Translations under genes and position numbers: made by a program
DNA from: Nanobdellota archaeon
Lineage (GTDB): Archaea > Nanobdellota > Nanobdellia > Pacearchaeales > GW2011-AR1
DNA: 64,000 nt
Reading direction: 5' to 3'
NCBI GenBank assembly: GCA_038045445.1
Contig: JBBSYC010000008.1
Location: 870 to 64,869, forward strand
Notes under the pieces: generated by a model
Told to the model about the DNA's origin: nothing
Databases searched by the model: none
What the model saw: the letters and a program-made list of their open reading frames with translations, nothing else
Part shown: one piece after another, positions 37,263-59,396 of the stretch
Numbering within the stretch: position 1 is the stretch's first letter
Layout: each line of letters starts with the position of its first letter

Positions 37263-40200
37263 CTAAATCAATTCAGCATAGAAATATACTGCTTTCATAT
37301 CTGCGGAGTTATATTCTCTCAATCTAGCAGGCACTCGAATTTCATAATCATATATTCCATAGGCTCCTTGAGTGTCTTTCTTTATTGAAGCCATAAATAC
37401 TACATCTTCTTCATCGTCTTGGCTAAACTGCCCATCTGCGACATCGTCTGATGTATCCCATAATATTCCGGTTCTGAATGCGGTGTTGTTCGTAGAATTG
37501 GATATAGGAATATTTGAAATCAGGCGATTAAATATATAGGAATCAATAGTCTCTGGAGCTTCTGTTCCATTACTAAATATTCCAGTTACTGAATCTCCGA
37601 ATGAAGACATTCCTAAAATAGAATCTAAATCTGTAAAATCATTCGTCGTAGTTCCGCCTAAAGCGCTTCTACCTAAAGACTGGAGGGAATTCCAAAACAC
37701 AACAGACTCTTTATCTGTGGCAAAGATTGAGCCGTTTTGATAATTACTGGCGTTCCAAAATAGAATACTTTGGTTCCTTTGTCCACTAAGAGAAAACACA
37801 CTTTGCTCCCCTATTTCTCCGTATACAAACTGCCAACCACTTACACTAGCAGAATTGTTTGCTAAATTATTGGTTTCATTCCATTCTTCAATAGTGCCAT
37901 TGGAAGATATTGGTGGGTCTATCTGTATGTAAATTTGATTTGTCCCTAAAGGTACTGACCAATTGATACTAAATAGCATATCTGATAAACCTAAAATGTC
38001 ATAGGCAGTATAATTTGAACCAAGTTGTATTCCTCCGTTGCCTGGCTCTCCTTGAAAGAAACTGACAGTTACATTAGGAACACTAACATTGACTAAATTG
38101 TGAATTGTTGCATTTACTAAAACAGTATCATTTTCTGCAGGATTGCTCATATTAAATTGAATGTCGCTAAAGTTAATCATGAAGTCTGCTAGAGTAACAT
38201 TAAATGAAAATTTATTGGACCAATTTCTGTTGCCTGAATTATCCACACAAGAAACGTTCCAGGTATGTAATCCCAGAGCAAATTTGTTGACAGACTGGAT
38301 GGTTGCAGTTCCATTTGGAGAGCTTATAGAACTGACATTTAACAAATTATCCGTATATAAGTTGCACGTTAAATCTGTATCTATATTGTCTATTGCAGTA
38401 AAGTTAAAGTTTACTAATTTCAGAGTATTGCTCCCATTTGTAGGAAGATTTAGATTAATTTGTGGAAAAGTTATATCCACTGTAAAATTAGTTAAGTTTG
38501 AAGTGCCTTGATTGAAATCTGGAAATACATCAAAACAACTTACATTCCAAGAGTGTTTGCCTTCAGAAACTCCATTTACTGCAAATGAGTTGTTTGCATT
38601 TGCAGTTATTGTGCCCGAACTTGAATTTATTACCCCGTCTAATAATAGTGAACAATTGAATATCCCAATGGTATCCTGTGGAAGATATACAAAGGTAACA
38701 TTTGATGAATTAAGATATTCTTCATTTAATGGGTTGAGATTTGTTACTATAGGGGGAGCTTCTACTGTGAATGTGCGAGTCTCACTGTAATTCAAATTCG
38801 AGGAATCATCTCTGCAATTGACATTCCATGTATATACTCCGTCCGACTTAATCAAACTTCGAAAAACGCTTGTGCCATTTTGTGAATCAATATTTCCTAT
38901 AGAGACTACATCATCAATGCTAATATTACAACTAAGATTAGAGTCTATTAAATCATATGCAGTATAATTAAAGGTAATATTATTTGATACCATTAGAGTA
39001 TTATTTTGAGGGAAATTTAATTCAATCCAAGGCTTTTTTGTATCTATTGTCAAAACAAAAGATGGCGTTTCTGTACCAACTAAATTAGTCAAATCAGTTA
39101 CATTAATTGTCCAATTGTAAAAACCATCTGGAAGAGAGACAGTGATATTATTTTCCGCATCATTGATAATTACGGTTGTATTTGTCTGATTAATATTCCC
39201 ATTTAATATAAGTGTTGCGTTTGCAATGTTGTTGTTATCATCTAAAACATTATAGAGGAAAGCCATATTTGAAGTATTTGAAAAGGTGTTATTTAAAGGA
39301 CCTACTAACCCTACGCTTGGTGCCTGTTCTATTGTGAAATTTCTAGTTAAACTGGTAAATTTGTTATTTGCATCGTCGTAACATGTGACATTCCAATACT
39401 TCAAGCCACCACTTGCAAAGGTTATTGAGCGATTAACTATTATTCCACTTGAGGCTAAAGAGGTATTGACTACTAAATTATTTACTGTGATATTACATAA
39501 CAAAAGAGGGTCTATGTTGTCTGTTGCATTGAAACTCAGATTTAGGTTTGATGTGAAGAATTGGGCTCCGTCATTCGGATAGATTAATTCAACGTTCAGA
39601 CCGTTAGTATCTACTGTGAATGCTCTTGTTTGGGAGACGTTTGTGAGTTCGTAAGTATCATTGCAAATAACATTCCATGTGTGAAATCCAGAATTGACTC
39701 CACTCATGCTGAAATTACTTTGTAGACTATTGCTTGGAGAAGAATGTGTCTGATTGTAAAATCCGTCTATATACAATTCGCAAAGACTTAGATTTGTGTT
39801 ATCTGAAGGAGTATAACTCAAATTGAATGATGTCGTGTTAAAGAACGAGTTATTCTCTGTGTTGAGAGCTATACGCGGATATTCTGTGATATTAACAAGT
39901 CTAGTTTCACTGTAATTTGAGCGACCAGAATCATCTGCACAAGAAACATTCCAGTAAAATCCTCCATCGATAAGATTTGTAATTTGACGATTTGTAATGC
40001 TTCCATTGACTGCTACAAAATTCAAATCGCTTCTTTCTCCTACAAAAAGGCTACAGACTAAATTAGGTGCTACATTGTCTATTGCAGTGAAATTAAAATT
40101 AACTGTTGAAGAATTGAATAGGGTATTATTACTTGGAAGATTTAAAGTTATATTTGGGGCATTAAGGTCTATGATAAATACTCTTGAAGAGTGATTTGTT

Positions 40201-43200
40201 GAATTTAGACCTCCTGTGTCTGTGGCATTGATATTCCATAAATATAATCCCTCTCCTAAATTTGTCAATGAGAAATTATTGTATTGTCCATTCAAAACGG
40301 ACGTTTGATTTGTTTGGTTTACTGCATTATTTAATATAAATCTTGTTTGTAAAAGGCCATTGTTGTCCGTGACATTATACACTAAAGTGATGTTACCTGT
40401 AGTGCTATAAGTTGCATTTGGAGTAATTAAATCTACAACTGGTGATATGTCTAAGACTGTGAATGTGTTAGTGATACTATTATTTCGATTACCTGCTTCA
40501 TCTATACAAGAGACATTCCAATAGTGGGTTCCAACAGCTATATTTGAAACAGAAAGATTAATAAGAGTTGCGTTTGCAGAATTAACATTTAAATGTTCAA
40601 TAGTTGAATCAATAGTTAAATTACAAATAAGGGTTTGGTCTATATTATCAAACGCAGTGTAATTGAATTCAACCCTACTAATTTGAAATGAACTATCATT
40701 TGCTGGAGCAGATAGATTTATACTTGGAAAAATTGTGTCTACATAAAATGTACGAATTGTGGTGTTTGTTCCCTCAAGATTGGTACTATCTGAAGAGTTA
40801 ACTGTCCAAGAATATGTTCCACTTGCTAAATTGACTAAAGAAAAATTGTTTAATACTCCGAGTGAAATGGCACTTGCATTTGTAGAATTTCTTGCACCGT
40901 TAAGAATTAATGTTGAATTAACTACATTAGAATTAATGTCTGTGATATTATAAAATAAAGTCACATTTTGAGAATTATACCATGTTGCGTTTGCAGGAGA
41001 AGATAATGAAATTACTGGAGCAACATCGCTCTGGCCGACAGTTACTTGTCTTGTAGTTGTTCCATTTTTAGAGTCATAAGTTGATACTGCAATACACCTG
41101 ATATTATTTACTGAATTTATGTTTCCTTGTATTGAAAAATTATTGTTTAGCAAAGTTGTTGAAATATTTCCTAAACTATGAGGATTAGTCTCTCCTGTAG
41201 ACAAGATAATATTTCCACTTGACTCTATATTTGTCCAAGTTTCAGTAGAACTGTTTCTCTGTAGATAAACTTGTGTGTTTCTACATGTACCAATTGTGCA
41301 TGTAACTTGGCATGTTACGTTTAACTGCTGTCCCGTAGAGATACTTGTATCTACTGTTGGTTGCACGAGGTCTACATTCAAGAAACCTTCTGTCGTGACA
41401 TTAATATCTAAAAATGAAGAAGTCGGAAAATCCCACGCGTGAATTATTGAACGAAGCTGTGTTGCGTGAGTATTATAAGCATTAATTAAATAAGTTATTC
41501 TGTCTGAAGGTTTAAGACGAATATCTGAAGAAATACACGTGGTATTCTGTCCTGTTGAGGTGCCAGCTGAAACAGTTCCCCCAGAACTATCGTCTCCATT
41601 CTGACAAAGAAGAGTGCTTCCAGAACTATTTTCTACATATACTTTCCATGTTAAAACAATATTTGCACTGGATAATGAAAAACTGCTTGAGAAATCTATG
41701 ACGCTACCTGCTGGAATAATTGCACCATTTGAACCCATTACTTGAGTTGAAGCATTCAATATATTCTTGACAGTTTGTGCAGTTATATTGAATCCAAGAG
41801 TATTTTGTGTAGCATCTTGAGAATTGTTCATCCAAATTACGGATGTTTGATTTTGAATTCCATTGCTTGTATAAGTTTCATAAAATCTTCTTCCGAAACT
41901 CCAAGGAACTACATTTGATATGATTGTACGATTTGAAGTTATGTTTGAATTTGAATATTGGTCTGTGCAAGAAACTGCCCATAAATATGTGCCATTTGAC
42001 AAGTAGTAGTTGAATGTTTGATTTATTCCTTTAGATATGGTTGAAACTGTTTGAACAGGCACTCCATCTAAGTAAATAGAACAGTTTGCAATATTTGAAA
42101 CGTCAGTCACATTATAAACGAAATAAAAGTCAAATGGATTTGAAATTGTTGTTCCATCTGAAGGAGAGACAAGAGAAACAAATGGATTTATAGTATCAAC
42201 TGTGGATGTAGTAAATGAATGGGGTCCTGTCGTATTGCATCTGCCGTCGCGACAAGAAGTTGCATTAAAATAATAAGTTGTCTGACCTGAAAGTCCTGTT
42301 AAATTAAATCCTTGAACTGTTTTAGGGAAATTATATCCTTGACTTCCCGAAGTCATGGCAAGAGTTGTGCCATATTTAATACTTGAATTTGCTTCAACAT
42401 TGGTGCTCCAATTTACAAATGCTGAAGTAATTGTTAGGTCTGAAACATTTACATTTGATATCTCTGGAACATAGGTTGGACAGATGCCACCCCATATTGT
42501 ACTGTTTGGATAATATGCACTCCAAGTTGCGTGAGTTGTAGTATTCACAAAAGATACTATGTATGCGTCTTCACATAGTTGAATCTGCGTAGTAAACTCT
42601 TCTGAAGCAACGTCTGTATATTGTTGAGAGTTAGATTGCACGGTAACTATTGAAGACAAAACAGTTCCATTGTTTAGATAGGATTGTGAATAAATTCCTG
42701 TATCTGTTGTTGGGTCATACCAGCTAACTACAAAATCATCTTGAGTTATTGCTGAAACTCTTATATCTTCTCCGCCTGTGGCATCTGTATCTATACTTGT
42801 TGTTGAAACTCTTGTTGTGCCATTTGGATAATAAACTGCAAATCTTTTAGCCCCATCATTTACATCCACCCATGAGACTACAAGTGAACTTTCATTCATC
42901 ACTGCAAGAGAAACTGAACGGGAGTTTCCCGCATTACTGTCTACAGTAACTGCTGATGAAATTGCGGTTCCAGTGTAACTATAAAGAACGTAATAAACGT
43001 CGCTAATACCTCCTCCACCCCCACTATCATCAAAATATAAAACTCCGAAGGCAGTTGAATTGATTGCAGACACTTCAACTGCTTGAGAAGCTTCTCCTAC
43101 ATCTTGGTCTATATCAAAAATAGACGTAATTGTTGAGCCACTTGAAGAATAAACCGCTGCGGAGATATCATTACTTGTATCATCAAACCATGACGCAACA

Positions 43201-46200
43201 AATGCTGTGGAATTTAAAGGAGAAATAGAAACTGCTAAAGAAGCTGTTGCGTCTGTGTCTAAATCTACTATTGAAGATGCTTGTGTTCCATTTGAATAAA
43301 ATATCTGAAAACTCGTGTCTGAATCTCCTGAATCATACCATGAAACTATGAATCTGTCTGAATTGAGAGCTGTGACTGAAACTGAATGCCCTGCGGTGTT
43401 TGCTGTGCATGCTCCAGCTGTTGTATCTATGTCAGTAACTTGTGTCAATAAATAACCCGTTGTATTAAAGACCCCAAAACTAATGTCATCTTCAGTATCG
43501 TCGCACCATGCAACTATAATTTTATTGAAATCTAAAGGGGCGTTAGAAATAGAGGTCACTGAATTATTTGAATATGTATGTGGAGACAGAAAAGTTGTAC
43601 TTAACAAGAGTCCGTCTGTTTTAGTTGAATCTAAAAGACTAGTTACATTTAACGAAGCAAAATAAGTTCCCTCTGTAACTGCAGATATATTCAACTCGAA
43701 AAAGATAGTACTTCCATTGTTTACATTAAGAAAACTTGATTGATTGATATATGTATATGAGGCTCCTGAAACATTTGTGACGCTTAAAGTATAATTGCTT
43801 GAGACTGTTCCATTGTTTGTAAAATTAATTAAGTATCTTATATTAGTTTCTGTTGTCCAAATTTGAGGAGATATTGGTTCACCGAAGACTGGGGTTGGGT
43901 CTCCTATTCCTGTGCTAAAACTATATCCTCCGCTTGAATTACATCTCCAGTCTATACAAGAAGTAACATTAAAATAATAAGTCTGTCCAGGACTTAAACC
44001 TGTTAGATTAAATCTGTGAGTTGACTGTGTGAAACTACTGCCCAAGATACTTCCTAAAGATGGTGTAGTCCCGTAGCTGATTGTTGAATTAGCATCAAAA
44101 TCTGTGCTCCAATTTACAAATGCTGAAAAGGCAGTAATGGTTGAAACATTTACATTGGAGATAACTGGAAAATTTGTTGAGCAAACACCGTTCCAGATTG
44201 TGCCGTTTGGATAATATGCTTGCCAAAAGTTTTGAGCTGTTGTGTTTGCTACTGCTACGACAAAAACATTATCGCACAACTGAAGACCTGTTGCGTATTC
44301 TTCGGATGCGATATCTTGATATTGTAATGCGGCTGATTGGATGGTTATTTCAGAAGACTGCGAGGAAGTATTAAAATAAAATGTTTTGGCAAAAATCCCC
44401 GTATCTGTACTTGAATCATACCAATTAAATCCAAACTTTGATTGTGAAACTGTAGAAATTTGCAATGAACGACCACTTCCTCCTGTGTCTGAATCTACGT
44501 CTATTACCCCACTAATTGGTGTAGCATTCCATAAATGTATTCTGAAAGATGCGTCATTTGCACCTCCTCCTGCATCAAACCAACCAAATGCAATTGTGCT
44601 TGAATTGAATGCTGAAACAGATACTACCCGAGATTCACCTGCTCCCCCATCAACATCAAATACTGAAGCGAGAGAAGTTCCGCTTATAGAATGAGGTTGC
44701 AAACTTGCGTCATTATCTGTATCATCAAACCAGGAGAACATAAATGCTGTGGAATTTAGTGCGGAAACACTAACACTATTTGAAGCTGGTCCAGCTGTTG
44801 TATCTACATCTGTGGCAGAAGTTATTGTTGAGCCACTTGATGAATAAACTCCAAATGTTGTATCTTCATCTGTTGCATCATACCATCCAAGAACAAATGC
44901 TGTTGAGTTAAGCGCTGAAGTTGAAACTGCTGCGGATAAACCTACATCTGTATCTGCATCAATAGGAGAAGTTAGATTAGATAGACTTAAATTATATGCT
45001 TGAAAAGTTATATCTCCATCAACAGAATCATACCAAGCTATTACAAAACTATTAGTATCCAAAGCTGAAACGCTAACTGAATTGCCTACCGAATTTGCTG
45101 TGCATGCACCTGCGCTTGAATCTATTGTGCGTTTAATTCCACTTCCATTTGAATTATAAAATGCTACATTGATATCATCGTCTGTATCATCGCACCAACC
45201 TAAAATAAAATTTGTATAATTAACTGGAGTAAGACTTATAGATGTAACACTTGATGATGAAAAATATGGACTTGAAAGAGTGGTGATTTCTGGAAGAGTG
45301 GTTGTTGTAAAGATTGTATTACCTAAAAGATAGCTTAAATCTAAATTTACCCATGGAGTATAAAGACGTGAAGGGTTACTTAAATCTGGGCGTGGATGCG
45401 CTAAATCGTCTTGAGTTGTACTAATTTGCACTTCACTGCCCCATGAAGTCATGTTATCTGAAGAAGCAACATAATATACATCGCTTGATGTTGCTGTGCC
45501 TCCCGGGGCGCGAGTGTATGTAGCATATACTGTTATATTATTTGTGCCTATGGACACCTTAGAGCCTCTTCCTGCAGAGCCTATATTTGTATAAACATCT
45601 GTTGTTATAGCCCATGAGACTCCGTTATAGAAATATGACTGAATATCTGCTCCTGCATTCCCAGGGTCATTGTTTCCGACTACATAAATTAAACTTGTGT
45701 TTGGGTCAACTGTTGCTCCCCATGAAGCTTCAATATTATTTGTGGTGCTTCCTGTAAAAGAAGTATCTATATTAACTCCTGCAATCCATCCATCTGTTGT
45801 TTCGTTATAACGTCTGGAAATAAGGTTTGTCGCACTAACATCCATGTGAATTGCAAAAATATCTCCTCCCGCTACGGGGATGAGTGCAAACTCGTCATTA
45901 AAATCGTTATTGAATGCTGAAGCGCTTGTTGTAGCCCATGTGCTACCATTATTTACAGATTTCCAAATTTCTTCATTTCCGCTATTGTCATCTGCGCCGG
46001 AAATAAAAAGATTTCCTAAGCTACTACGAGTAATTGATGGGTTTTGTGCCTGTTCTCTAAGCCTTCCTATGTCTCCGGTTACATCAACTTCTGTAGATAA
46101 TGTATCTCCAGTTGTATTAAGATATTTGTAGTAAAATGCATCTCCACCCGTTTCACCGAAAACTATGTTTATCAAGTTGCCATTGTATTCGGGAGTCCAA

Positions 46201-47876
46201 AGGTCATACCATAATGCAAATGTGTAAGCATCTGTTTGGGAAGTAATTGCTACAGGAGAACTCCATGTAACTCCGCTGTCGTTTGTCTTTGCATAAGAAA
46301 GCTGTGGACCAGAATCAAAATAGAAGACATATCCATTAGTGTCATTTACAAAAACCACTGATGCACCCGTACCATATTGTTGGTCCATATTAACAATAGA
46401 ATTATCAATAGTTAATTCTGGGTCGTTTGCAATTTGCCAAAGCCTTTGTTCTGAAAAAGAACCTATTGAAAATGGACCTAATAAGTAAAGGGATGGTATG
46501 ACATTTGGCGAATCGAATTCGTAGCCTAATTCGTAACTTTCTCCTGCAACAAAATCAACATTCCAAGAAAGAAGGATATTATTTATTTCTTCAGATAATT
46601 TCAAAGAGGGGTCTGGAGTAATAGAAAAACCTAAAGGAACTCTTTCGATTACTTTGCCCGTATAATTTTCAAAGGCTTTAATATAAAAACGCATTGAGTG
46701 ATCAACATATGGATAGACTCTTGTGGGTGCGACACGACGGACATCAAATGGAACTGATTCACGCACTTCAAAAGAGTCATTTATTGAATATTCTCCCTTT
46801 TCAGTATTTGCTGTAACTGAAAATGTATAATTGCCTATTTCGTTTGGAAGGTATTCTGCAAAATAGTCTGGTTCTGATAAAGCCCCTAAATGACCGCACG
46901 AATTACTTTTTAATATATTTCCATCATTTGTTGAGAGATAATTAATGACTCCATTTGGAGATTCGATTTTAATATTTAAGTCTGCATCACAAATAATGAC
47001 TCCTGTTTCGCTTAATACTCCTAATGAAATATGCACCTTGTCCTTAGGAAGATAGATTGACTTGTCTAAATTTGCTGCAAGAATTCCCCATAAAAACCAT
47101 CTTTCTAAGAGATATTTTTTTTCATCATGATAAAACTCAACAACTAATTTATTTAATCCCGGAGTGATGTGTCTTGTTTCGATTAATCCTACATTTAGGC
47201 TTTCGTCTAATGAATAAATTGGTTTATCTATTAAAAAAGAATTTTTATATATATCTTCTATGTAAATTTGTGGTTGATATGAACTGAAGACTTCAGTTAG
47301 AGAATCTATAAGCGTTGGTGAAACTACTTGAGCTGAATGAACCTCTTCGGATGAAAAGAAAAACTTTGGAGCTTCATTTGATGAAAATACCTCTAAATTA
47401 GAGGGTATTCTTTCTATTAATGAATCTTCCAGATTTTCTGAATCTTCTTCTGGGATAGAAAAATTAAATTCTGAATTTTGATTTGAGGAATAATTTGAAT
47501 AGTTATTGAGATTATTTTTAAAGGTTGATTCATTAGATAAATTTCCCTTGATAGCTGAAGCGATGACCTTAAAAGAATAACTATAATCTCCTGATAAAGA
47601 TTCTACCAATATTGAATGGTCTCCAATTTCTAAAGGTTTAAAGATAAAAACATTTTGATTGCCTCTGTAAATTAAAGGCTCTGATGGGGTAATTATTTTT
47701 AATTTATAATCTTGAAATGCTGTAAGATCCAGCTTGACTCTTTCTCCCAACTCATAAATATTTTCAGATGTTGTCGCAAAAGATTTTTCGGAAATGAAGA
47801 TAATGTTTAAAATAAATAAGAAAGACATTATCGCAAGACTAAATAATCCTATTTTTATAGTACCTTTCTTTGTCAT
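37263..47876 (-). CDS. giant secreted surface protein (3537 aa) with FN3-like domains and many Ig-like/CARDB-like repeats
   Basis: Signal peptide MTKKGTIKIGLFSLAIMSFLFILNIIF. Ser/Thr/Asn-rich with hundreds of N-x-S/T sequons. Two FN3-like units (...VSTITAFSAFVNWST...YGTT...LTGLSPGQTYYFNVTSC...). The C-terminal half holds ~90–100-aa tandem repeats of the pattern P..SL.SP.N.T...N.TF.YN.TD.N... . No C-terminal TM. The ORF is uninterrupted over 10.6 kb. Confidence 0.8.
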   Translation of the reverse strand: MTKKGTIKIGLFSLAIMSFLFILNIIFISEKSFATTSENIYELGERVKLDLTAFQDYKLKIITPSEPLIYRGNQNVFIFKPLEIGDHSILVESLSGDYSYSFKVIASAIKGNLSNESTFKNNLNNYSNYSSNQNSEFNFSIPEEDSENLEDSLIERIPSNLEVFSSNEAPKFFFSSEEVHSAQVVSPTLIDSLTEVFSSYQPQIYIEDIYKNSFLIDKPIYSLDESLNVGLIETRHITPGLNKLVVEFYHDEKKYLLERWFLWGILAANLDKSIYLPKDKVHISLGVLSETGVIICDADLNIKIESPNGVINYLSTNDGNILKSNSCGHLGALSEPDYFAEYLPNEIGNYTFSVTANTEKGEYSINDSFEVRESVPFDVRRVAPTRVYPYVDHSMRFYIKAFENYTGKVIERVPLGFSITPDPSLKLSEEINNILLSWNVDFVAGESYELGYEFDSPNVIPSLYLLGPFSIGSFSEQRLWQIANDPELTIDNSIVNMDQQYGTGASVVFVNDTNGYVFYFDSGPQLSYAKTNDSGVTWSSPVAITSQTDAYTFALWYDLWTPEYNGNLINIVFGETGGDAFYYKYLNTTGDTLSTEVDVTGDIGRLREQAQNPSITRSSLGNLFISGADDNSGNEEIWKSVNNGSTWATTSASAFNNDFNDEFALIPVAGGDIFAIHMDVSATNLISRRYNETTDGWIAGVNIDTSFTGSTTNNIEASWGATVDPNTSLIYVVGNNDPGNAGADIQSYFYNGVSWAITTDVYTNIGSAGRGSKVSIGTNNITVYATYTRAPGGTATSSDVYYVASSDNMTSWGSEVQISTTQDDLAHPRPDLSNPSRLYTPWVNLDLSYLLGNTIFTTTTLPEITTLSSPYFSSSSVTSISLTPVNYTNFILGWCDDTDDDINVAFYNSNGSGIKRTIDSSAGACTANSVGNSVSVSALDTNSFVIAWYDSVDGDITFQAYNLSLSNLTSPIDADTDVGLSAAVSTSALNSTAFVLGWYDATDEDTTFGVYSSSGSTITSATDVDTTAGPASNSVSVSALNSTAFMFSWFDDTDNDASLQPHSISGTSLASVFDVDGGAGESRVVSVSAFNSSTIAFGWFDAGGGANDASFRIHLWNATPISGVIDVDSDTGGSGRSLQISTVSQSKFGFNWYDSSTDTGIFAKTFYFNTSSQSSEITIQSAALQYQDIASEEYATGLQLCDNVFVVAVANTTAQNFWQAYYPNGTIWNGVCSTNFPVISNVNVSTITAFSAFVNWSTDFDANSTISYGTTPSLGSILGSSFTQSTHRFNLTGLSPGQTYYFNVTSCIDWRCNSSGGYSFSTGIGDPTPVFGEPISPQIWTTETNIRYLINFTNNGTVSSNYTLSVTNVSGASYTYINQSSFLNVNNGSTIFFELNISAVTEGTYFASLNVTSLLDSTKTDGLLLSTTFLSPHTYSNNSVTSISNAPLDFNKIIVAWCDDTEDDISFGVFNTTGYLLTQVTDIDTTAGACTANTAGHSVSVTALNSDRFIVSWYDSGDSDTSFQIFYSNGTQASSIVDLDTDATASLAVSISPLNSTAFVASWFDDTSNDISAAVYSSSGSTITSIFDIDQDVGEASQAVEVSAINSTAFGVLYFDDSGGGGGISDVYYVLYSYTGTAISSAVTVDSNAGNSRSVSLAVMNESSLVVSWVDVNDGAKRFAVYYPNGTTRVSTTSIDTDATGGEDIRVSAITQDDFVVSWYDPTTDTGIYSQSYLNNGTVLSSIVTVQSNSQQYTDVASEEFTTQIQLCEDAYIVSFVNTTTHATWSAYYPNSTIWGGICPTYVPEISNVNVSDLTITSAFVNWSTNVEANSSIKYGTTLAMTSGSQGYNFPKTVQGFNLTGLSGQTTYYFNATSCRDGRCNTTGPHSFTTSTVDTINPFVSLVSPSDGTTISNPFDFYFVYNVTDVSNIANCSIYLDGVPVQTVSTISKGINQTFNYYLSNGTYLWAVSCTDQYSNSNITSNRTIISNVVPWSFGRRFYETYTSNGIQNQTSVIWMNNSQDATQNTLGFNITAQTVKNILNASTQVMGSNGAIIPAGSVIDFSSSFSLSSANIVLTWKVYVENSSGSTLLCQNGDDSSGGTVSAGTSTGQNTTCISSDIRLKPSDRITYLINAYNTHATQLRSIIHAWDFPTSSFLDINVTTEGFLNVDLVQPTVDTSISTGQQLNVTCQVTCTIGTCRNTQVYLQRNSSTETWTNIESSGNIILSTGETNPHSLGNISTTLLNNNFSIQGNINSVNNIRCIAVSTYDSKNGTTTRQVTVGQSDVAPVISLSSPANATWYNSQNVTLFYNITDINSNVVNSTLILNGARNSTNASAISLGVLNNFSLVNLASGTYSWTVNSSDSTNLEGTNTTIRTFYVDTIFPSINLSAPANDSSFQISRVEFNYTAFDNIDQTLICNLTIDSTIEHLNVNSANATLINLSVSNIAVGTHYWNVSCIDEAGNRNNSITNTFTVLDISPVVDLITPNATYSTTGNITLVYNVTDNNGLLQTRFILNNAVNQTNQTSVLNGQYNNFSLTNLGEGLYLWNINATDTGGLNSTNHSSRVFIIDLNAPNITLNLPSNNTLFNSSTVNFNFTAIDNVAPNLVCSLFVGERSDLNFVAVNGSITNRQITNLIDGGFYWNVSCADDSGRSNYSETRLVNITEYPRIALNTENNSFFNTTSFNLSYTPSDNTNLSLCELYIDGFYNQTHSSPSNSLQSNFSMSGVNSGFHTWNVICNDTYELTNVSQTRAFTVDTNGLNVELIYPNDGAQFFTSNLNLSFNATDNIDPLLLCNITVNNLVVNTSLASSGIIVNRSITFASGGLKYWNVTCYDDANNKFTSLTRNFTIEQAPSVGLVGPLNNTFSNTSNMAFLYNVLDDNNNIANATLILNGNINQTNTTVIINDAENNITVSLPDGFYNWTINVTDLTNLVGTETPSFVLTIDTKKPWIELNFPQNNTLMVSNNITFNYTAYDLIDSNLSCNISIDDVVSIGNIDSQNGTSVFRSLIKSDGVYTWNVNCRDDSSNLNYSETRTFTVEAPPIVTNLNPLNEEYLNSSNVTFVYLPQDTIGIFNCSLLLDGVINSSSGTITANANNSFAVNGVSEGKHSWNVSCFDVFPDFNQGTSNLTNFTVDITFPQINLNLPTNGSNTLKLVNFNFTAIDNIDTDLTCNLYTDNLLNVSSISSPNGTATIQSVNKFALGLHTWNVSCVDNSGNRNWSNKFSFNVTLADFMINFSDIQFNMSNPAENDTVLVNATIHNLVNVSVPNVTVSFFQGEPGNGGIQLGSNYTAYDILGLSDMLFSINWSVPLGTNQIYIQIDPPISSNGTIEEWNETNNLANNSASVSGWQFVYGEIGEQSVFSLSGQRNQSILFWNASNYQNGSIFATDKESVVFWNSLQSLGRSALGGTTTNDFTDLDSILGMSSFGDSVTGIFSNGTEAPETIDSYIFNRLISNIPISNSTNNTAFRTGILWDTSDDVADGQFSQDDEEDVVFMASIKKDTQGAYGIYDYEIRVPARLREYNSADMKAVYFYAELI

Positions 47877-48070
47877 TTAGAAACTCCTTCTTTTTTAATT
47901 ACAATGCTTGAATTTTTATGATTTAAATATAAATTTACCAAATCTCCCTCTTCTAAACCTAAATTATTTAATAATTCCTTTGGGAAAGCTATGCGGTTTA
48001 ATTCCTGAATTTTGCCTTTTTTGAAAAGAATTTCATTAGTTTTACTAACTTTTTTAGAATTCACCACCAT
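47873..48070 (-). CDS. AbrB/MazE/SpoVT-family swapped-hairpin DNA-binding protein
   Basis: NRIAFPKELLNNLGLEEGDLVNLYLNH...SIVIKK matches the AbrB-type motif. The stop overlaps the giant gene start (ATGA); 65-aa product. Confidence 0.55.
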   Translation of the reverse strand: MVVNSKKVSKTNEILFKKGKIQELNRIAFPKELLNNLGLEEGDLVNLYLNHKNSSIVIKKEGVSK

Positions 48071-48144
48071 ACTAATAATATACTAATAAAAGGATATAAA
48101 AACCTATAGCAGATACACCAAATAATTGCAGTGCATTTACCTTC

Positions 48145-49176
48145 TTACGAACCAGAACTTACTGTTGAACCAAATATTAATTTACCAGTACATGTTCCTG
48201 CAACACCCATTGGTACGTAAATTCTCCAATATGTTGCATTGACATGGTCTACATAGGGGTCTGAATCATTTCTTCTTTGAGCTAAATTGAACCTACGAAC
48301 GGTGTTTAAAGATGTAAGGTTTTGATATTGCGATTCAAACTGTCCTAAAGTCATTGTGCCACTTGTATTTGAAGCTGTAAGATTATACTTCTGATAGTAA
48401 ACAGAGATATTCTGGACATTTCCAAGCGTACAGTTCATTGATAAGTTGTCTCCTTGCGTTACTGCATAACCTTGCAATGAAAGATTAACCAATGCATTTC
48501 CAAAGTTTGTTACATTTAGAGTGCGCTCATTTGATACATCGGTTCCATTTACGGTGCCATAATCTACTGATCCTGGAAGTCCTATTGCCATCAAAGTATT
48601 CACATAAGACAACTGTCCTTCTGTATCTGTACGTGAAGTATTGTCCATAACGACGACTGAAGCATTCCAAGTAGCGTTGTTTGCATAATATTGTAATGGT
48701 AAGATACATGTTGCGTTTACCTCGTAAGCTGTTCCGTAAGTTGTGTCTATTGAGCAGGTTTGATTTGTGTAATGATTATTATTATCATCTGAAGCTCCGA
48801 GAGTGGTTTCTAATGTATCGAAGAATGTTACAGAAACATTTTGTATATTTGCCTCTCCGTTAAAATCTCTTGCGACGACTAGCACGACAGTGTTTGAGGT
48901 AGAATTTGCAGTCAAATCTATTCCGTTTCCTCCGTTAACTTGAATAGATAATATTTCTGGAGGAACTGCCCCCACATCTAACCGCGTATTTACTGTAACA
49001 TTTTCACCTATTCCTGCAAATGTAAAACTTGAAAACATGAAGATTACCGATAACATCAATGCAAGTTCCAAAGAGTAAAACAAGTAAAATGCCATTTTTT
49101 TAATTGCATAAACTCTGTTAAATCTTTTTTTTCTTTTCATTTCAGTTGAAATTTCTTTTTTATCTGAAATAGCCAT
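48145..49176 (-). CDS. secreted sequon-rich protein (hypothetical surface/S-layer-associated)
   Basis: N-terminal TM/signal (MAFYLFYSLELALMLSVIFMFSSFTFA), then a beta-rich Asn/Thr-rich domain; 343 aa. Confidence 0.5.
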   Translation of the reverse strand: MAISDKKEISTEMKRKKRFNRVYAIKKMAFYLFYSLELALMLSVIFMFSSFTFAGIGENVTVNTRLDVGAVPPEILSIQVNGGNGIDLTANSTSNTVVLVVARDFNGEANIQNVSVTFFDTLETTLGASDDNNNHYTNQTCSIDTTYGTAYEVNATCILPLQYYANNATWNASVVVMDNTSRTDTEGQLSYVNTLMAIGLPGSVDYGTVNGTDVSNERTLNVTNFGNALVNLSLQGYAVTQGDNLSMNCTLGNVQNISVYYQKYNLTASNTSGTMTLGQFESQYQNLTSLNTVRRFNLAQRRNDSDPYVDHVNATYWRIYVPMGVAGTCTGKLIFGSTVSSGS

Positions 49177-49177
49177 T

Positions 49178-49966
49178 TTAGGTTAGCTCCACATAAATAT
49201 AATATGCTGTTGAACCACTAAATCCTTGATACCCTATTTCTGGGACTATCATCTGGAAATCGTACTTTGCATTGTCAAAACCTGTCGTATCTTCTTCCAT
49301 TATTGTTGCGTAAATTGTATTGGAACCAGCAGGCTCATATAACACAATTTCTTCAAAATCCGTATCTTGGGTTGCATTATTTACGTATGTATTTAATGTC
49401 GGGCAACTATTTGCTAATATATTTGCTGTTGCAACAAAAAAAGAGCTATGGCTCCCGTTTATTCCATTGTTAAAAGTGCGAGTGATATTATCATTAACTT
49501 GTGTATGGTTCATCCTTATATTTTCAGATTCAAGAGTTGTTATATTGCTACAATTCAAAGTTGCCCACGATATGCTTGATGAATTTCTAGTTGCATAAAT
49601 CTCTCCTGTAATTGTTGTTAGTGACCAATCATATATCGTGCTTCCCGAAGCATCATCTAAAGCAAAACTACCCGTAACATTACCTACGAAAGCTTTCCAT
49701 CGGACATTTTGTGTAGATGTAGTAATGTTTATTGTTGCAATTCTTCCTCCAGAAATGTTGAGATTGTAACCTGACAAAGTTGTAGAAGTCTCATTGCTTA
49801 CTATACCTATTGTATCTGGTCCAGTTGGTGCTGCAGATGTAAATGAAAATGTTTGTAAAAAGAATATTCCTATTATAAACAACAGAACCAATGGTACTTC
49901 TACTCGAAGACTATTCTTTAATGACTTTTTGTATTCTTCATAGACCATTGTACTCTCTTTATTCAA
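49178..49966 (-). CDS. secreted sequon-rich protein, paralog A
   Basis: Signal peptide, then a C-terminal block EEIVLYEPAG...TTGFDNAKYDFQMIVPE...YYIYVELT that is paralogous to the next gene. Confidence 0.55.
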   Translation of the reverse strand: MNKESTMVYEEYKKSLKNSLRVEVPLVLLFIIGIFFLQTFSFTSAAPTGPDTIGIVSNETSTTLSGYNLNISGGRIATINITTSTQNVRWKAFVGNVTGSFALDDASGSTIYDWSLTTITGEIYATRNSSSISWATLNCSNITTLESENIRMNHTQVNDNITRTFNNGINGSHSSFFVATANILANSCPTLNTYVNNATQDTDFEEIVLYEPAGSNTIYATIMEEDTTGFDNAKYDFQMIVPEIGYQGFSGSTAYYIYVELT

Positions 49967-50768
49967 GCTCTACGAAAAAGAAGTATGTAACAGCACTTAC
50001 ATCAGTACCATGTCCATCTTCTAAAACTAGCATCTCGAAATCATTATCTCCATTATTGAAACCTGTTACGGAAGTTTCTTCGATAAGTGATGCGAACACA
50101 ACGCTTCTTGTTGCTGGCTCGTATAGAAGGACTTCTTCAAATTGCTGGTCGACTGCACCACTTGAACTGTAAACTCTTGTGCTTCTGCATTCATTTGATG
50201 AAAATTGTAAGTTTGCTGTAAAGAATGCGTCATGGTCTTGAAGAGTGAATGTGTTGTTAACTCCGTCTGCATCAAATGAGGCTATATTAAAACGAGATTC
50301 TAACTGTGTGAGATTCAAACCGCCTACACTTGTTGCTCCAGCAGTTTCTCCACCTATGCCCCCTTGGGTTCCATTTGCGGTGAAATTGAAACATTGTATT
50401 GAGCCCCAGGTTATTGTGGAGTTTGTGGAAGCATAGACTTCTCCTTGTGGACTTGCTAAAGACCAATTGTAAATAGCCTGATTATTAGCGTTTGCAAGCT
50501 GTATTGTACCTGTAACATTTCCAAAGTAACCTTGCCATGTTTGAGTTACTGAATAACCTGATATTGTAAGTTCTGTAATGTTTCCAGCAAATGCTGTTGC
50601 ATTACCTGCGGTGTCTGCAGGAGCTCTTGAAGTTGAAACGTTTGTAACTGATGCACCGAAAGGTTCAACAGCAATTGATAAAGGTAAAAGAAATAGAGAA
50701 AGCATAAATGTAAAAGTTAATAGAATATTCAGATTCAAATTCTTAATCATCGCGTTCTTTGTCACCAT
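49959..50768 (-). CDS. secreted sequon-rich protein, paralog B
   Basis: Signal peptide; C-terminal EEVLLYEPAT...VTGFNNGDNDFEMLVLE...YFFFVELE. 8-nt overlap with paralog A. Confidence 0.55.
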   Translation of the reverse strand: MVTKNAMIKNLNLNILLTFTFMLSLFLLPLSIAVEPFGASVTNVSTSRAPADTAGNATAFAGNITELTISGYSVTQTWQGYFGNVTGTIQLANANNQAIYNWSLASPQGEVYASTNSTITWGSIQCFNFTANGTQGGIGGETAGATSVGGLNLTQLESRFNIASFDADGVNNTFTLQDHDAFFTANLQFSSNECRSTRVYSSSGAVDQQFEEVLLYEPATRSVVFASLIEETSVTGFNNGDNDFEMLVLEDGHGTDVSAVTYFFFVELE

Positions 50769-50890: not shown

Positions 50891-53770
50891 CTACACAAAT
50901 CTCTTAAGTTGCTCATATATTCTTGGCTTGTTTTCTTCAGATATTGAAAGATATAACTCTTGAATACGTCTATAAACTTCATGCGCTTGCTCATTCATTC
51001 CCTCTTTGATTAAATCTGAATAATCTTTTATTAAAAGAAGTGCCTCATAATAGGCTAAATCTCTACAAAAGGAATTAATTTTTTCATAAATCATAGCTTT
51101 GGCTCCTCTTGGAACTCTTGAATATATCTCTGCCATATGAGGGTAAATACTTTTTGCGCTCTCTATATCTCCTGAAGCAATAAATGATTTACTTCTTTGA
51201 ATAAGGCGGATAATCTCTTTTATTTGGGAATGTTCTGCATACTTCCCATATTTTCTTTCTTTGTATGAATAAATTCCTCCAGTCATTAAAAGAGTAATTA
51301 CTATAAACCATCCAAAGATTATTGAAATTCCCCCAAAACTATTAAACGAACCAAGAATTGTAAAACCTGTTACTCTGTTAGATGATGAACTTATTTTTTC
51401 TTCAAAAAGTAGGGAATCTATTTTCTTTATATTTTCCTGCGAGAGATGTCCGTTTATATTGTAGACTAACTTATTATCTTCTAAGTCTTCTGATTTAATC
51501 AAGAACATTTCTTTAGAGATTACAATTTCATTAGGGATCATTACCATTAGAGATTCTCCTTGAGCTATTTGAGAGATAACTTCAAGAACCTCGAAAGAAG
51601 AATCATCTGCATTTTGCAAAGTTTTCACAATCAAAGTTAGTTGTTTTTCTTCGTCTTTGTATTCTAAAGATATTTTTAAGTATCTTGTAGAAACCCTTAG
51701 ATTTTCCTGTAATTCTTCTGTATGTTCAATCATTCTTTTCCTCTCGCCACGACTTAGTTCCAGATTCTTTGCTGAAATATATTTATCTATTACTTCTTCT
51801 ATTGATGAATCCACCCTATTCTTTACAAAATCTCCTGAATCTGAAACTTCTATTGAATTTGGAATGCTTCTGGATATATTTTCTAACTCTTCATATAGCT
51901 CAAGACGCCTTTCCTCTCTGCGTTTTGCGTCTGTTATGAATTGGATATCGTTTTGAAGGTCTTGTTTTATTTGACCTAATTTCTTTTGATAGAATATCAT
52001 TTCCTTATTTATTCCCAATATCTCTATTGCTTCCTGTTCTTCTCTACTATACCCTTCATATCCCAAAAAAGATTCTATTCGGTCTAAAAGATCTCTTATT
52101 TTGGAATCTCCCTCAAAAGTTTTATTCTGAAACAATCTTGATTGTGTCTGATTTGAATTGCTTGAAAAATATTCAAAATCTCGAGTCTTGGAGACCATTG
52201 AATTATTTATTGCTCTGCACTCAACCTCCCAAGAATAATCTCCTTCATCAAAACTAATTAAATTAACTATTGAAACTACTCCTGAAATTACTGTTTTATT
52301 AACTAAAGAATATACTCTTTCTCCTATTTGACTACTGTTATAATAATATAAATTGAAACTGCAATTTGATACATTCCCTGTTGGCAAGTATGTGAAATTT
52401 ATGCTAGTTGTTGAAATGGAAGAATCATCTGCAGGGGATATTAAAGATAAACTTATTGGGGAAGAATTATTTGAACTCAAATTTGACAGAGTTAGAACAT
52501 TAATTGTAAGGGATTTTGTTATTAAAGACAACCCATCTATTACGCTTATTGAGGCATTGTAAGTGCCTGCTAAGGTGTAATTGTGAGTTATTAGTCTATT
52601 TATGTTTCTATCAAATACTGGTCCAAGAGATGAACCATCTCCAAAGAAAATTGTGTAATATATACTACGGTTGTCTAATGAATTCAAATTTAATTGAAAC
52701 GGAACGTTCTGGCCCATGATAATCGTGTCTGAAGAGGTTGTGAAATTAACAGTCAAAGAATAATCTAAATTAACCGAGAATGTTTCAGACAATGACGAAT
52801 TTATTGAACCATTAACTGAATCGTAACATTCAAGTGTCCATGAATAAATTCCATTTGATAGGTTTGTTGAAGATATGGTTAAAGATTCGTTATGGGGGTG
52901 TGCAATAAGCCCATAAATCTCCCTTTCGCTATTTGATATACTAAAGTTGCACAAAATGTCGTTTAGATGTGCATAATCTAAAGAATATTGAAAATTTAAT
53001 TCTTGTATTGAATTTATTGTTCCTGAAGGTGCTGAAATTCTATTTAGGATTAATGAGGAAGAATTTGAAGATGTTGTGAAATTAATGATTATTCTAAAAG
53101 ACTGATCTGAAAGATGAGGCACAATAAAAGAAATGCGTTCATACATCCCGTTTGAATTTTCATCATGGAACTCTACTTCAAACGATGGATCATCAATTCT
53201 ATCTTCTTCTTCCTGGTTTGAATTGGTCCAATATAAATGAACTTGTTCTACATCTTCAATCTCTGGAATATTTGTGTAAACTCTTAGAGGTCTATTGAAA
53301 TGAATATCGCTTGACACAGTTAGGGATTTTATGAGTGAATCTTCTGAAGATGATTCGATGCTTTCCTCTTTTGTTATTGAAATGTCTGAATCTCTTTCAA
53401 TTAAAGTTTCTATTTCCATAAGACCATTTTTTGTTTTTGTGTAGGGGATTAATTCTTCTGATTTATTTTCTTGAATTTGAGAGATATTTTCGGAGCTATT
53501 TTCTTGTTCTGGATTTTCAGAGTATGCTTGAGGAATTTCGGCATTCTCTAGGGTTTCATTGTTTTCGGAAGTTTCTTCAGTAACTTCTTCTAAAAATGGA
53601 TTGATTGTTTCTTCTGAATTCTCTTCAATTGAAATTTCATTTGGAACTAAATCAGATATTTCTTCTATGAAATCTTGTCCTAAAACAACAAATCCTGTCA
53701 ATACAGATAATAAAATCATTACTGCCAAAAAAATAGAAGTACGCAAAGGATCAAGAACTATACTAGACAT
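50891..53770 (-). CDS. single-pass membrane protein with an extracellular PKD-like domain and a cytoplasmic helical tail
   Basis: N-terminal TM/signal, an acidic linker, a PKD-like motif (...YYTIFFGDGSS...), a TM near residue ~790 (GGISIIFGWFIVITLLMTGG) and a C-terminal tail with I-Y helix repeats; 959 aa. Confidence 0.55.
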   Translation of the reverse strand: MSSIVLDPLRTSIFLAVMILLSVLTGFVVLGQDFIEEISDLVPNEISIEENSEETINPFLEEVTEETSENNETLENAEIPQAYSENPEQENSSENISQIQENKSEELIPYTKTKNGLMEIETLIERDSDISITKEESIESSSEDSLIKSLTVSSDIHFNRPLRVYTNIPEIEDVEQVHLYWTNSNQEEEDRIDDPSFEVEFHDENSNGMYERISFIVPHLSDQSFRIIINFTTSSNSSSLILNRISAPSGTINSIQELNFQYSLDYAHLNDILCNFSISNSEREIYGLIAHPHNESLTISSTNLSNGIYSWTLECYDSVNGSINSSLSETFSVNLDYSLTVNFTTSSDTIIMGQNVPFQLNLNSLDNRSIYYTIFFGDGSSLGPVFDRNINRLITHNYTLAGTYNASISVIDGLSLITKSLTINVLTLSNLSSNNSSPISLSLISPADDSSISTTSINFTYLPTGNVSNCSFNLYYYNSSQIGERVYSLVNKTVISGVVSIVNLISFDEGDYSWEVECRAINNSMVSKTRDFEYFSSNSNQTQSRLFQNKTFEGDSKIRDLLDRIESFLGYEGYSREEQEAIEILGINKEMIFYQKKLGQIKQDLQNDIQFITDAKRREERRLELYEELENISRSIPNSIEVSDSGDFVKNRVDSSIEEVIDKYISAKNLELSRGERKRMIEHTEELQENLRVSTRYLKISLEYKDEEKQLTLIVKTLQNADDSSFEVLEVISQIAQGESLMVMIPNEIVISKEMFLIKSEDLEDNKLVYNINGHLSQENIKKIDSLLFEEKISSSSNRVTGFTILGSFNSFGGISIIFGWFIVITLLMTGGIYSYKERKYGKYAEHSQIKEIIRLIQRSKSFIASGDIESAKSIYPHMAEIYSRVPRGAKAMIYEKINSFCRDLAYYEALLLIKDYSDLIKEGMNEQAHEVYRRIQELYLSISEENKPRIYEQLKRFV

Positions 53771-58592: not shown

Positions 58593-59396
58593 ATGAGGCT
58601 ATCTCAACTTTTGCTTAATCCCAACAAAGCAGAACGCCATCCTGCTGAAATGATTCTTGTGGGATTTTTTTATGCTTCTCTATCCCTTGTCTGTAGCAAT
58701 TGGCTTTTTCCAGAATATTCTTCAATAACTGCTGTTTTTCTTACAACTATCTCTTGCCTTTATATAATACAAGGTGCAATACTAATTGAAGAAGAAAGAG
58801 AGGGTAAATTTGAAAGTGAAAAAAGTCTTCTGAAGCATCATTCTGGAGTAATTGCTTTAATTTTTTATTTATTTGTGGGTTTTTTTCTTGCATTTTTGTT
58901 CTGGAATATTATTCTTCCAGAAAGTTTAAGCACTAACTTATTCGAAGCACAAAAAAATGAGGTTGAAAACATTCAAAGAATTACTGGAAGAAGTGTTGCT
59001 TTTGGAGATTTTGCTACCATTTTTATAAATAATCTCAAAGTAATGGGGATATCTGTTCTTTTTGCAGTATTCTATGGTTCTGGAGCAGTATTTATTCTTG
59101 CATGGAATGCAAGTGTCATAGGCTTTGTTATTGGAGAAATAATAAAAAACACTACTGGAATTTCTGCTCTACCTATTCTTTTATTCAAGTATGCTATACA
59201 CGGTATTCCTGAAATGGTTGCCTACTTTGTGGCTGCTCTTGCAGGAGGGATACTTTTTGTTACAATAATAAGAGGAGATTATTCTAAAGATAGAATAATT
59301 AGAACCTGCATTGATTTTAGTGTCCTTATATTTATATCAATAGTGCTTCTGGGAATTGCAGGAATTGTAGAATCTTACTTTTCGTCAGCTATTTAG
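58593..59396 (+). CDS. SpoIIM/DUF95-family membrane protein
   Basis: Polytopic; VMGISVLFAVFYGSGAVFILAWNASVIGFVIG matches the conserved DUF95 core; 267-aa product. Confidence 0.5.
   Translation: MRLSQLLLNPNKAERHPAEMILVGFFYASLSLVCSNWLFPEYSSITAVFLTTISCLYIIQGAILIEEEREGKFESEKSLLKHHSGVIALIFYLFVGFFLAFLFWNIILPESLSTNLFEAQKNEVENIQRITGRSVAFGDFATIFINNLKVMGISVLFAVFYGSGAVFILAWNASVIGFVIGEIIKNTTGISALPILLFKYAIHGIPEMVAYFVAALAGGILFVTIIRGDYSKDRIIRTCIDFSVLIFISIVLLGIAGIVESYFSSAI

Follow-up and report, generated by a model that had tools for sequence, protein, structure and literature searches.

A giant anchor-less surface protein gene of a Nanobdellota archaeon and its overlapping AbrB-like mini-gene: a putative self-repressed unit within a conserved surface module

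The stretch of DNA analysed here, referred to as the window, comprises 64,000 nucleotides of contig JBBSYC010000008.1 (positions 870 to 64,869 of the forward strand; assembly GCA_038045445.1) of a Nanobdellota archaeon of the Pacearchaeales, and the genes in question are a giant gene at 37263..47876 (-), encoding 3537 amino acids (aa) in one open reading frame (ORF), and a 65-aa gene of probable AbrB/SpoVT fold at 47873..48070 (-), which precedes it as the first cistron. The explanation favoured here, with slightly better than even confidence, is that an AbrB-fold mini-regulator and a giant secreted surface protein form a two-gene unit that would repress itself, and that this unit would lie within a conserved surface module into which the giant is docked non-covalently. 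Giant surface proteins with Ig and FN3 domains are known from DPANN archaea; what is added is the pairing with a mini-regulator and a module of small subunits sharing the C-terminal domain of the giant, which has been unnamed so far. The literature search returned no paper linking DPANN, AbrB and surface proteins.

The uninterrupted ORF of 10.6 kb and 3537 aa described in the original prediction was confirmed, and no frameshift breaks it across independent assemblies and two strain variants. The first 10.2 kb of the unit are identical in three independent assemblies and 6.9 kb are identical in a fourth, and the reading frame of the giant is open in two diverged strain contigs; because of this identity and openness, the giant ORF is neither an assembly artefact nor a pseudogene. 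The exact 65-aa protein is present on 22 public contigs, including ENA assemblies of Hainich groundwater (wells H51/H52) and the NCBI metagenome-assembled genome (MAG) GCA_964362785.1. The ATGA overlap that had been claimed between the end of the 65-aa gene and the start of the giant is borne out by the ORF coordinates and by the junction tctaaATGAcaaag, in which the ATGA at 47873-47876 is common to both genes. A Shine-Dalgarno (SD)-like GAAGGAG at 47884..47890 (-) stands 7 nt 5' of the giant ATG, within the coding end of the AbrB gene; in the window such motifs precede internal operon genes, and none stands before the AbrB ATG or before other first genes. With the SD-like motif and the ATGA overlap at the giant start, the 65-aa protein and the giant would be translated from one message.

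The 65-aa protein consists of a Lys-rich N-terminal tail and one predicted swapped-hairpin domain, which stops 4-5 residues before the stop codon. It scores 24.7 bits against Pfam PF04014 (MazE_antitoxin), equal to the gathering cut-off, and 22.3 bits against TIGR01439, below the cut-off of 28.3, while a two-sequence profile matched SpoVT (8.7e-5), AbrB (1.7e-4) and Abh (5.5e-3) in the PDB across the full swapped-hairpin N-domain, with values that are marginal but mutually consistent. These matches point to the AbrB/SpoVT swapped-hairpin fold for the product of this conserved gene, in agreement with the AbrB/MazE fold first proposed for it. In common with AbrB, SpoVT and Abh (PDB 1Z0R, 2RO5, 2FY9), its ~45-aa domain aligns over the entire swapped-hairpin unit, the Arg of the LGRVVIP motif is conserved, and short, AT-rich repeats along one side of the DNA are the probable operators, here as a candidate; autoregulation is a known property of AbrB. 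Unlike these proteins, the window protein is archaeal, is only 65 aa long, has no C-terminal multimerisation domain, has the RR pair replaced and is the first cistron before a giant gene. The DNA-contacting arginines of Bacillus subtilis AbrB are R8, R15, R23 and R24; the equivalent of R15 is invariant in 7/7 members of the AbrB subfamily (LNRIA/GDRIK), the R23/R24 positions read NN, EN or DT, and the Lys-rich N-terminal tail could compensate for the replaced arginines.

The best Pfam name of the protein is MazE_antitoxin, and the layout of the unit mimics that of a type II toxin-antitoxin operon, with a small DNA binder first, a 4-nt overlap, likely autoregulation through an operator in its own promoter (here a candidate) and AbrB, ribbon-helix-helix (RHH) and helix-turn-helix (HTH) folds that can be swapped. 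That the gene is a remnant or repurposed antitoxin of the MazE or VapB type, as the original prediction had offered, is nevertheless very improbable and was rejected: the downstream genes encode exported surface proteins of 0.6-4.5 kaa, no toxin domain was found downstream in Pfam and NCBIfam, and the partners of the subfamily are secreted proteins with the C-terminal domain in six of the seven cases and an unrelated 83-aa ORF in the seventh (locus L024). Moreover, the protein is a bare 45-aa domain plus the N-terminal tail, lacking a C-terminal toxin-binding extension, and its nearest solved relatives are SpoVT, AbrB and Abh, not MazE.

A word-based search for homologues of the 65-aa protein recovered nothing beyond the protein itself, and its relatives were found via locus context and a pattern scan. 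For the module and the regulator slot, 79 further loci were examined (loci carry L numbers and proteins P numbers below). AbrB homologues with 49-60% identity were found at four other loci. At L011, the giant is 67% identical and the AbrB protein 58%, with a -4 overlap; at L023, AbrB overlaps by ATGA an ORF starting MNKKGVIKIG..., a giant-type N-terminus just before the contig end, and AAGGAG stands at the position equivalent to the GAAGGAG of the window; at L037, L077 and L083, AbrB overlaps by 4 nt a protein matching the hidden Markov model (HMM) of the C-terminal domain. Altogether, 6/7 members of the subfamily overlap by 4 nt a gene with the C-terminal domain of the giant (for the truncated L023, judged from the N-terminus), so that the absence of the AbrB ORF at orthologous loci, named beforehand as the outcome that would speak against the pairing, was not what these loci revealed.

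The pairing had been called unusual, which does not hold, as it is one version of a widespread module with winged-helix (wHTH), Zn-ribbon or RHH-like proteins in the slot. A 64-77-aa CxxC...CxxC Zn-ribbon protein stands before the giants P0003 and P0004 (49-54% identical to the window giant) and overlaps their start by 8 nt; a 67-aa wHTH protein precedes P0007 and P0008, and in the survey a giant-type N-terminus follows 15/15 members of the wHTH family at a distance of -25 to +56 nt; RHH-like mini-ORFs occupy the slot at L042 and L025, and probably at L021. The Zn-ribbon, wHTH and RHH-like domain assignments are each sub-threshold. Taken as a whole, the pattern suggests that each giant gene has its own small regulator that binds nucleic acid, and it speaks against a specific protein partner or an antitoxin; since the slot is filled elsewhere by wHTH, Zn-ribbon and RHH-like proteins, the selected trait would be a private small repressor per giant gene, not AbrB. 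It is quite improbable that the mini-protein is instead a cytoplasmic partner of the giant pre-protein, such as a chaperone or targeting factor kept at a fixed ratio by translational coupling. Overlapping unidirectional archaeal genes are coupled in translation and their products are often subunits of one complex (PMC6728339, PMC10666635), and the -4 overlap is conserved in the AbrB class; however, four unrelated small folds, all of nucleic-acid-binding types, are found in the slot, and a specific protein contact would not survive such replacement, the wHTH genes often lie 1-56 nt apart from the giant, and operator-like repeats are present in the promoter. As a separate observation, Zn-ribbon-type giants have immediately behind them a DUF2080 gene (PF09853, 25.3 bits) and a 51-58-aa gene that overlaps it (L012, 9818-10215; L017, 8071-8444); these downstream DUF2080 genes were considered as AbrB relatives and rejected, with an hhalign probability of 0.2% and no PDB match.

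The spacer 5' of the AbrB gene is 74 nt long and contains a TATA-like box, TTTTTATAT (48094..48102, -), read from the sequence 24-32 nt upstream of the AbrB start codon, and owing to this distance a very short leader, or none, is implied for the AbrB mRNA. The candidate operator AGTATattattAGTAT (48069..48084, -) consists of two pentamers 11 bp apart, the second of which overlaps the AbrB ATG; the earlier statement that the upstream region lacks a repeat motif was wrong, as it carries AGTAT-N6-AGTAT. The pattern AGTATN6AGTAT has one match in the 64-kb window, at the AbrB promoter (0.33 expected), and for the inverted version ATACT-N6-AGTAT, allowing one mismatch, the window shows no enrichment (3 found versus 4 expected). 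The AbrB-subfamily promoters carry two to four AGTA[TC] pentamers in 11-bp phase between the TATA-like box and the start codon, with same-strand pairs at 11 bp in 6/7 of them and an inverted pair in L011. Relative to the ATG, the pentamers are located at -36, -25, -14 and -3 in L037; at -30, -19 and -8 in L083; at -22 and -11 in L077; at -21 and -10, with an inverted copy at -32, in L024; at -20 and -9, with an inverted copy at -31, in L023; and at -35 and -24, as the inverted pair, in L011. By comparison, 57 of 152,768 background windows (0.037%) hold an 11-bp AGTA[TC] pair, and fewer than 0.1% of shuffles reach the phased pentamer pattern of each AbrB locus. Because the repeats are one helical turn apart, lie between TATA and start and are conserved across proteins only 49-60% identical, the phased pentamers are read as a candidate autoregulatory operator, and the dedicated autoregulator suggested by the original prediction gains support from them.

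From these features we infer a self-repressed bicistronic operon as the regulatory half of the explanation. The 65-aa protein would bind the pentamers as a dimer or tetramer on one DNA face, and the bound protein would occlude the transcription start, repressing its own bicistronic mRNA; some archaeal repressors bind downstream of TATA. The level of the regulator would track the output of the operon because it would be translated from the same message as the giant, providing negative feedback on a very costly gene. An alternative reading, in which the mini-proteins act as general regulators or as nucleoid-associated proteins and lie next to giant genes through tight gene packing with no dedicated circuit, is judged improbable. 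The 4-nt overlaps are ordinary in the window (5/37 co-directional gene pairs), all the domain assignments are weak, and further target sites are possible beyond the 64-kb window, but the position of 15/15 wHTH and 6/7 AbrB members directly upstream of a giant or C-terminal-domain gene is unexpected from packing alone, and the window contains a single phased pentamer pair, that of the AbrB promoter, which recurs at orthologous promoters.

Two further features were observed at promoters of the wHTH type. Those of L041, L045, L050 and L054-L059 have in common AAAGGTATTTAAAT, then ~14 nt, then TTGCGttATATAGTATG, which are likely a B recognition element (BRE)/TATA box and a conserved start element, and possibly a wHTH operator; these loci are closely related, and the promoter conservation may be trivial. 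Upstream of the wHTH-giant operon of P0008 (L020, 9350-9600, +), ~10 tandem short hairpins with variable stems and a conserved 4-nt loop within C(C/U)GAAG were seen, with eight CYGAAG copies in 210 nt and a predicted RNA fold of -91.3 kcal/mol (z = -8.9).

The structural half of the explanation starts from the two ends of the giant. Its Sec-type signal peptide (aa 1-34; 47775..47876, -) has KK in the n-region, an h-region of ~20 aa and SFA followed by TT; aa 4-34 are the sole hydrophobic segment of the protein, the top 19-aa Kyte-Doolittle mean elsewhere being 1.34, and in the homologues positions -3/-1 are likewise occupied by small residues, with a conserved YxLGExVK domain thereafter. On these features, a cleaved Sec signal without any other anchor is plausible, as had been proposed. 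The C-terminus (...MKAVYFYAELI) has no sorting motif, hydrophobic helix or basic tail; anchoring by archaeosortase/PGF-CTERM or sortase/LPXTG was rejected, as there is no C-terminal hydrophobic helix and the homologues end in FYxE[IL]x.

A ~190-aa domain (TGILWD...YDYEhRVPA...FYxE[IL]x) forms the C-terminus of all giant homologues and in the window giant covers aa 3345-3537 (37266..37844, -; from alignments, with the motifs TGILWD, YDYEhRVPA and FYxEI). Its AlphaFold2 (AF2) model reaches a pLDDT of 90.2 and a pTM of 0.88, and it is without a match in Pfam, NCBIfam or PDB sequence searches. Paralogues of this domain are two secreted proteins encoded nearby, the 269-aa small subunit A (49959..50768, -) and the 256-aa small subunit B (49178..49948, -); hhalign of the C-terminal domain against the small-subunit alignment gave 97.7% with an E of 1.7e-12 over 168 columns. 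PDB sequence searches with the small subunits were without a match, and NCBIfam returned nothing for the giant or for the 269-, 256-, 343- or 959-aa proteins. In an exhaustive search, the small-subunit profile matched 1013 cluster representatives, most of them 240-280 aa long, with the domain always at the extreme C-terminus, also in proteins of 343-1635 aa. The family occurs on 398 stretches in species-representative genomes, and the best 80 of the 398 are essentially all from Pacearchaeota, Woesearchaeota or Nanoarchaeota MAGs, often several per genome; paralogous modules within one genome are exemplified by three loci on one contig of CAYHPN010000002.1 and by several contigs of JAYONY.

The third member of the triad is a 343-aa secreted protein (f343 family; 48145..49176, -), 44% identical to a 331-aa protein of L019. 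The f343 family has 55 matches in the surveyed loci, usually directly after both small genes, and no Pfam match for the 343-aa protein was found; the family was also considered as a relative of the small-subunit/C-terminal domain and rejected, no relation being detectable. The triad of two small proteins and f343 adjoins giants in L019, L020 and at least 20 surveyed loci, the order giant, small, small, f343 is present in at least 20 loci, and L037 reproduces the order of the window (715-like, 959-like, small, small, 343-like, AbrB, giant). Judged from homology and gene order, the giant, the small proteins and f343 belong to one conserved module of Pacearchaeota and Woesearchaeota that has had no name so far and is present in dozens of DPANN genomes. 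At L021 (7194-10987), a 935-aa surface protein is followed without a gap by a 328-aa protein with CARDB and C-terminal domains and its own signal peptide (P0068), and the C-terminal domain therefore also exists as a stand-alone protein of ~325 aa; this pair is flanked by 248-aa and transmembrane (TM)-anchored 349-aa relatives of the small subunits, judged by eye from the translations, unscored.

The giant would be exported by Sec, cleaved after SFA and heavily N-glycosylated, and its C-terminal domain would dock non-covalently into an assembly of the small subunits and the 343-aa protein, in a manner resembling a fimbrial tip adhesin with a pilin-like domain; such docking would account for the lack of a membrane anchor, and the propellers of the giant, described below, would then lie distally, where they may bind a host cell or substrate. 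The pilin domain of FimH and the Sulfolobus threads (PMC9715654), cannulae (PMC12518558) and bundling pili (PMC9245690) are comparable in that an adhesin carries a C-terminal copy of the small-subunit domain and in the Sec-exported, glycosylated subunits. In contrast to fimbrial or donor-strand filaments, the predicted C-terminal fold has no Foldseek match to solved structures, there is no chaperone or usher, and polymerisation is here only conjectured; TasA/bundling-pilus, thread and cannula subunits are absent among the Foldseek matches of the C-terminal domain, and no structural similarity to them was found.

The giants of SPEARE type in DPANN archaea (SPEARE of Nanohaloarchaeum; SVXNc_0300 of Ca. 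Nanohalococcus) are reported to be TM-anchored and to carry a VirB4/TraG-like ATPase domain in the cytoplasm (PMC10266531). The window giant is similar to them in being among the largest genes of a tiny genome and in its Sec signal, long runs of Ig/FN3-like domains and presumed role in host contact, whereas it has neither a second hydrophobic segment nor an ATPase, ends in a domain common to small secreted proteins and showed no sequence relation to them. An identity of the SPEARE type was rejected, given no hydrophobic segment beyond aa 34 and no credible ATPase in Pfam or NCBIfam; the only ATPase-type match in the giant is BrxL_ATPase at 11.9 bits, far below the 25-bit cut-off.

Several observations weigh against the explanation of a self-repressed unit with a docked giant. 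The AbrB match stands only at (Pfam) or below (TIGR01439) the curated cut-offs, and where B. subtilis AbrB (ELRRTL) has two arginines behind the conserved Arg, the alignment shows NN or EN here. At L024, the distant AbrB-subfamily member is followed by an unrelated 83-aa ORF, and four giant-type genes are without a small upstream gene, with none at L044 and L075 and a 470-500-aa secreted protein in its place at L029 and L085. The pentamer motif is a post hoc finding in AT-rich DNA, the pentamer that overlaps the ATG is also found in wHTH-type promoters and may belong to a shared start context, and the leaderless inference is not general, as TATA-to-ATG distances vary among the loci. For the structural half, the proposed docking draws its evidence only from homology and gene linkage, and the C-terminal domain had no Foldseek neighbour in PDB or BFVD, the two libraries compared, which is possibly a sensitivity limit.

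Between its two ends, the giant is a modular, predominantly beta-structured protein, and the earlier domain list stood in its FN3 and Ig units and omitted three beta-propeller regions, a CARDB-like domain and the conserved C-terminal domain. The region of aa 35-480 (46437..47774, -) comprises a conserved N-terminal beta domain (YxLGExVKxDL), a variable linker, an MG2-like domain (weak Pfam MG2 match) and a further beta domain, and is kept in P0002-P0004 and P0010-P0014; PDB sequence searches with aa 36-480 and aa 481-870 gave no match. An all-beta region with Asp-box-like motifs follows at aa 481-864 (45285..46436, -) and is probably beta-propeller 1, with three degenerate Asp-box-like motifs readable in aa 540-810 by the S-x-D-x-G-x-T-W criterion and no Pfam BNR match. 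Beta-propeller 2 (aa 865-1232; 44181..45284, -) is built of ~50-aa 'WYD' blades, six by HMM, and beta-propeller 3 (aa 1430-1799; 42480..43589, -) is its copy with 43% identity and likewise six blades by HMM. The AF2 model of aa 481-1235 (755 aa) is all-beta, with weak confidence in its first half (pLDDT 40-70) and a pLDDT mostly of 80-95 per ten-residue block, with a mean of ~85, in the repeat half. In Foldseek, this model matched tandem beta-propellers (GH74, LRP6, Utp), with GH74 enzymes among the top matches, and propeller 2 aligned with the seven-bladed PHL/PLL lectins at TMt 0.56-0.58 and 10-12% identity, with six blades HMM-detected; two of the three propellers may thus be lectin-like.

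The two FN3-like domains that had been predicted were recovered, FN3-like domain 1 at aa 1236-1325 (43902..44171, -; Pfam fn3 and Pur_ac_phosph_N), where Pfam fn3 matches aa 1239-1306 with 24.7 bits, just under the 25-bit cut-off, and FN3-like domain 2, its copy, at aa 1803-1895 (42192..42470, -), implied by an internal duplication. This duplication of 567 aa (offset ~567 aa), seen by self-comparison and iterated HMMs, contains in each copy a region of ~50-aa repeats and then an FN3-like unit; the Ig-repeat profile, which is not an FN3 model, also matched aa 1822-1905 weakly. Next, aa 1898-2303 (40968..42185, -; Pfam, HMM) comprise an Ig-like unit (Big_7) and a conserved Cys-containing domain of ~310 aa (aa 1993-2303), a region conserved in P0002-P0010, followed by a tandem array of ten Ig-like repeats of ~95 aa, paired into double units of ~189 aa (aa 2304-3238; 38163..40967, -; Pfam Big_13, 30.3 bits) and by a CARDB-like domain (aa 3239-3344; 37845..38162, -), read from the sequence in the window protein, with PF07705 annotated on the homologous segment in many relatives. 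The Ig-like repeats are real, yet the iterated HMM counts 11 of them instead of dozens (a single one at aa 1916-1992, the other ten at aa 2304-3238); similarly, the richness in N-glycosylation sequons holds, with N-x-S/T present 171 times versus 86 +/- 8 in composition shuffles (~2x), and the count of hundreds does not. Altogether, the predicted features support the view that this DPANN archaeon makes a glycosylated, modular, secreted surface protein without an anchor, which may serve to attach it to a host or to other cells.

Bacterial giant adhesins (SiiE, MpIBP, Ebh/Embp) likewise consist of a long rod of Ig-like spacers bearing ligand-binding domains, and the expression of the S. aureus giant adhesin involves small winged-helix regulators such as MgrA (PMC6548404). 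Unlike these adhesins, the window giant has no type I secretion system (T1SS) signal, RTX repeats, LPXTG motif or cell-wall anchor, and its regulator would be co-transcribed rather than global. An ordinary envelope, S-layer or sheath, made of the giant together with both small subunits and the 343-aa protein, in which the regulator sets the dosage and no host-attachment device exists, is an unlikely alternative. It is supported by the secreted, sequon-rich nature of the proteins, by the lack of any other recognised S-layer candidate in the window and by the great abundance of the small-subunit family (1013 cluster representatives; 398 stretches); in addition, syntenic TM proteins with PKD or Ig ectodomains recall two-component S-layers with one membrane-anchored partner. 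On the other hand, several paralogous modules are present per genome (CAYHPN010000002.1, JAYONY), the length and N-terminal domain content of the giant vary strongly among relatives, a pattern that fits variable adhesins better than a lattice protein, and the lectin-like propellers point to ligand binding.

The composition of the window is archaeal and AT-rich (~33% GC), and the immediate convergent neighbour of the giant/AbrB unit is the S13-S4-S11-RpoD-L18e-L13-S9 operon. Next to the triad lies the gene of a 959-aa PKD protein (50891..53770, -; Pfam PKD) with a signal peptide, one C-terminal TM helix and a cytoplasmic tail, homologues of which are in the equivalent position at L037, L046, L047 and L049, followed by two signal-peptide proteins with a single C-terminal TM helix, of 715 aa (54101-56248, +) and 562 aa (56782-58470, -). 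Two of these three proteins have helical cytoplasmic tails, and their homologues are syntenic with the module in 7-13 surveyed loci; all three might anchor the surface assembly in the membrane. Another gene for a giant surface protein, at 59393-63973 (-) and of at least 1526 aa, contains Big_13 and Big_3_2 and long near-exact internal repeats; its C-terminal ~400 aa are conserved beside the module in many loci, and it is without the C-terminal domain of the 3537-aa giant. At L011, an IS200/IS605-type Y1 transposase gene (11443-11883) is located just downstream of the closest giant orthologue. The MG2-like N-terminal block of the giant (WGVLAxNxxKSIYLPGE...CDAxL) also occurs in P0011-P0014, proteins of 2300-2900 aa with HTH-like N-termini, which we take to be typical of bacteria of the Candidate Phyla Radiation (CPR), and this hints that DPANN and CPR surface proteins share domains.

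A broader and rather speculative reading is that these genes encode an undescribed surface assembly, in which the two paralogous ~250-aa subunits and a ~330-aa partner would be joined into a fibre or lattice by a domain of new fold and interchangeable heads of 0.6-4.5 kaa would be inserted by their own C-terminal copy of it, with a co-transcribed mini-repressor (AbrB, wHTH, RHH or Zn-ribbon) per module; if this were true, a cell with a genome of ~1 Mb could display one of several alternative attachment organelles at a time. With the conserved module, an odd gene pair becomes a defined one, comprising about 1000 unnamed small secreted proteins and a matching C-terminal domain on giants, and this domain offers an answer to how an anchor-less protein of 3537 aa could stay on the cell. 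The predicted operator and the private mini-regulator are a testable pair, and the slot clearly illustrates how small transcription factors of unrelated folds can replace one another at a single operon position, which is useful for annotating 'hypothetical' DPANN mini-ORFs. Pacearchaeota and Woesearchaeota, which count among the most widely distributed uncultured archaea, presumably live attached to other cells, and the module may bear on the molecules that make this contact.

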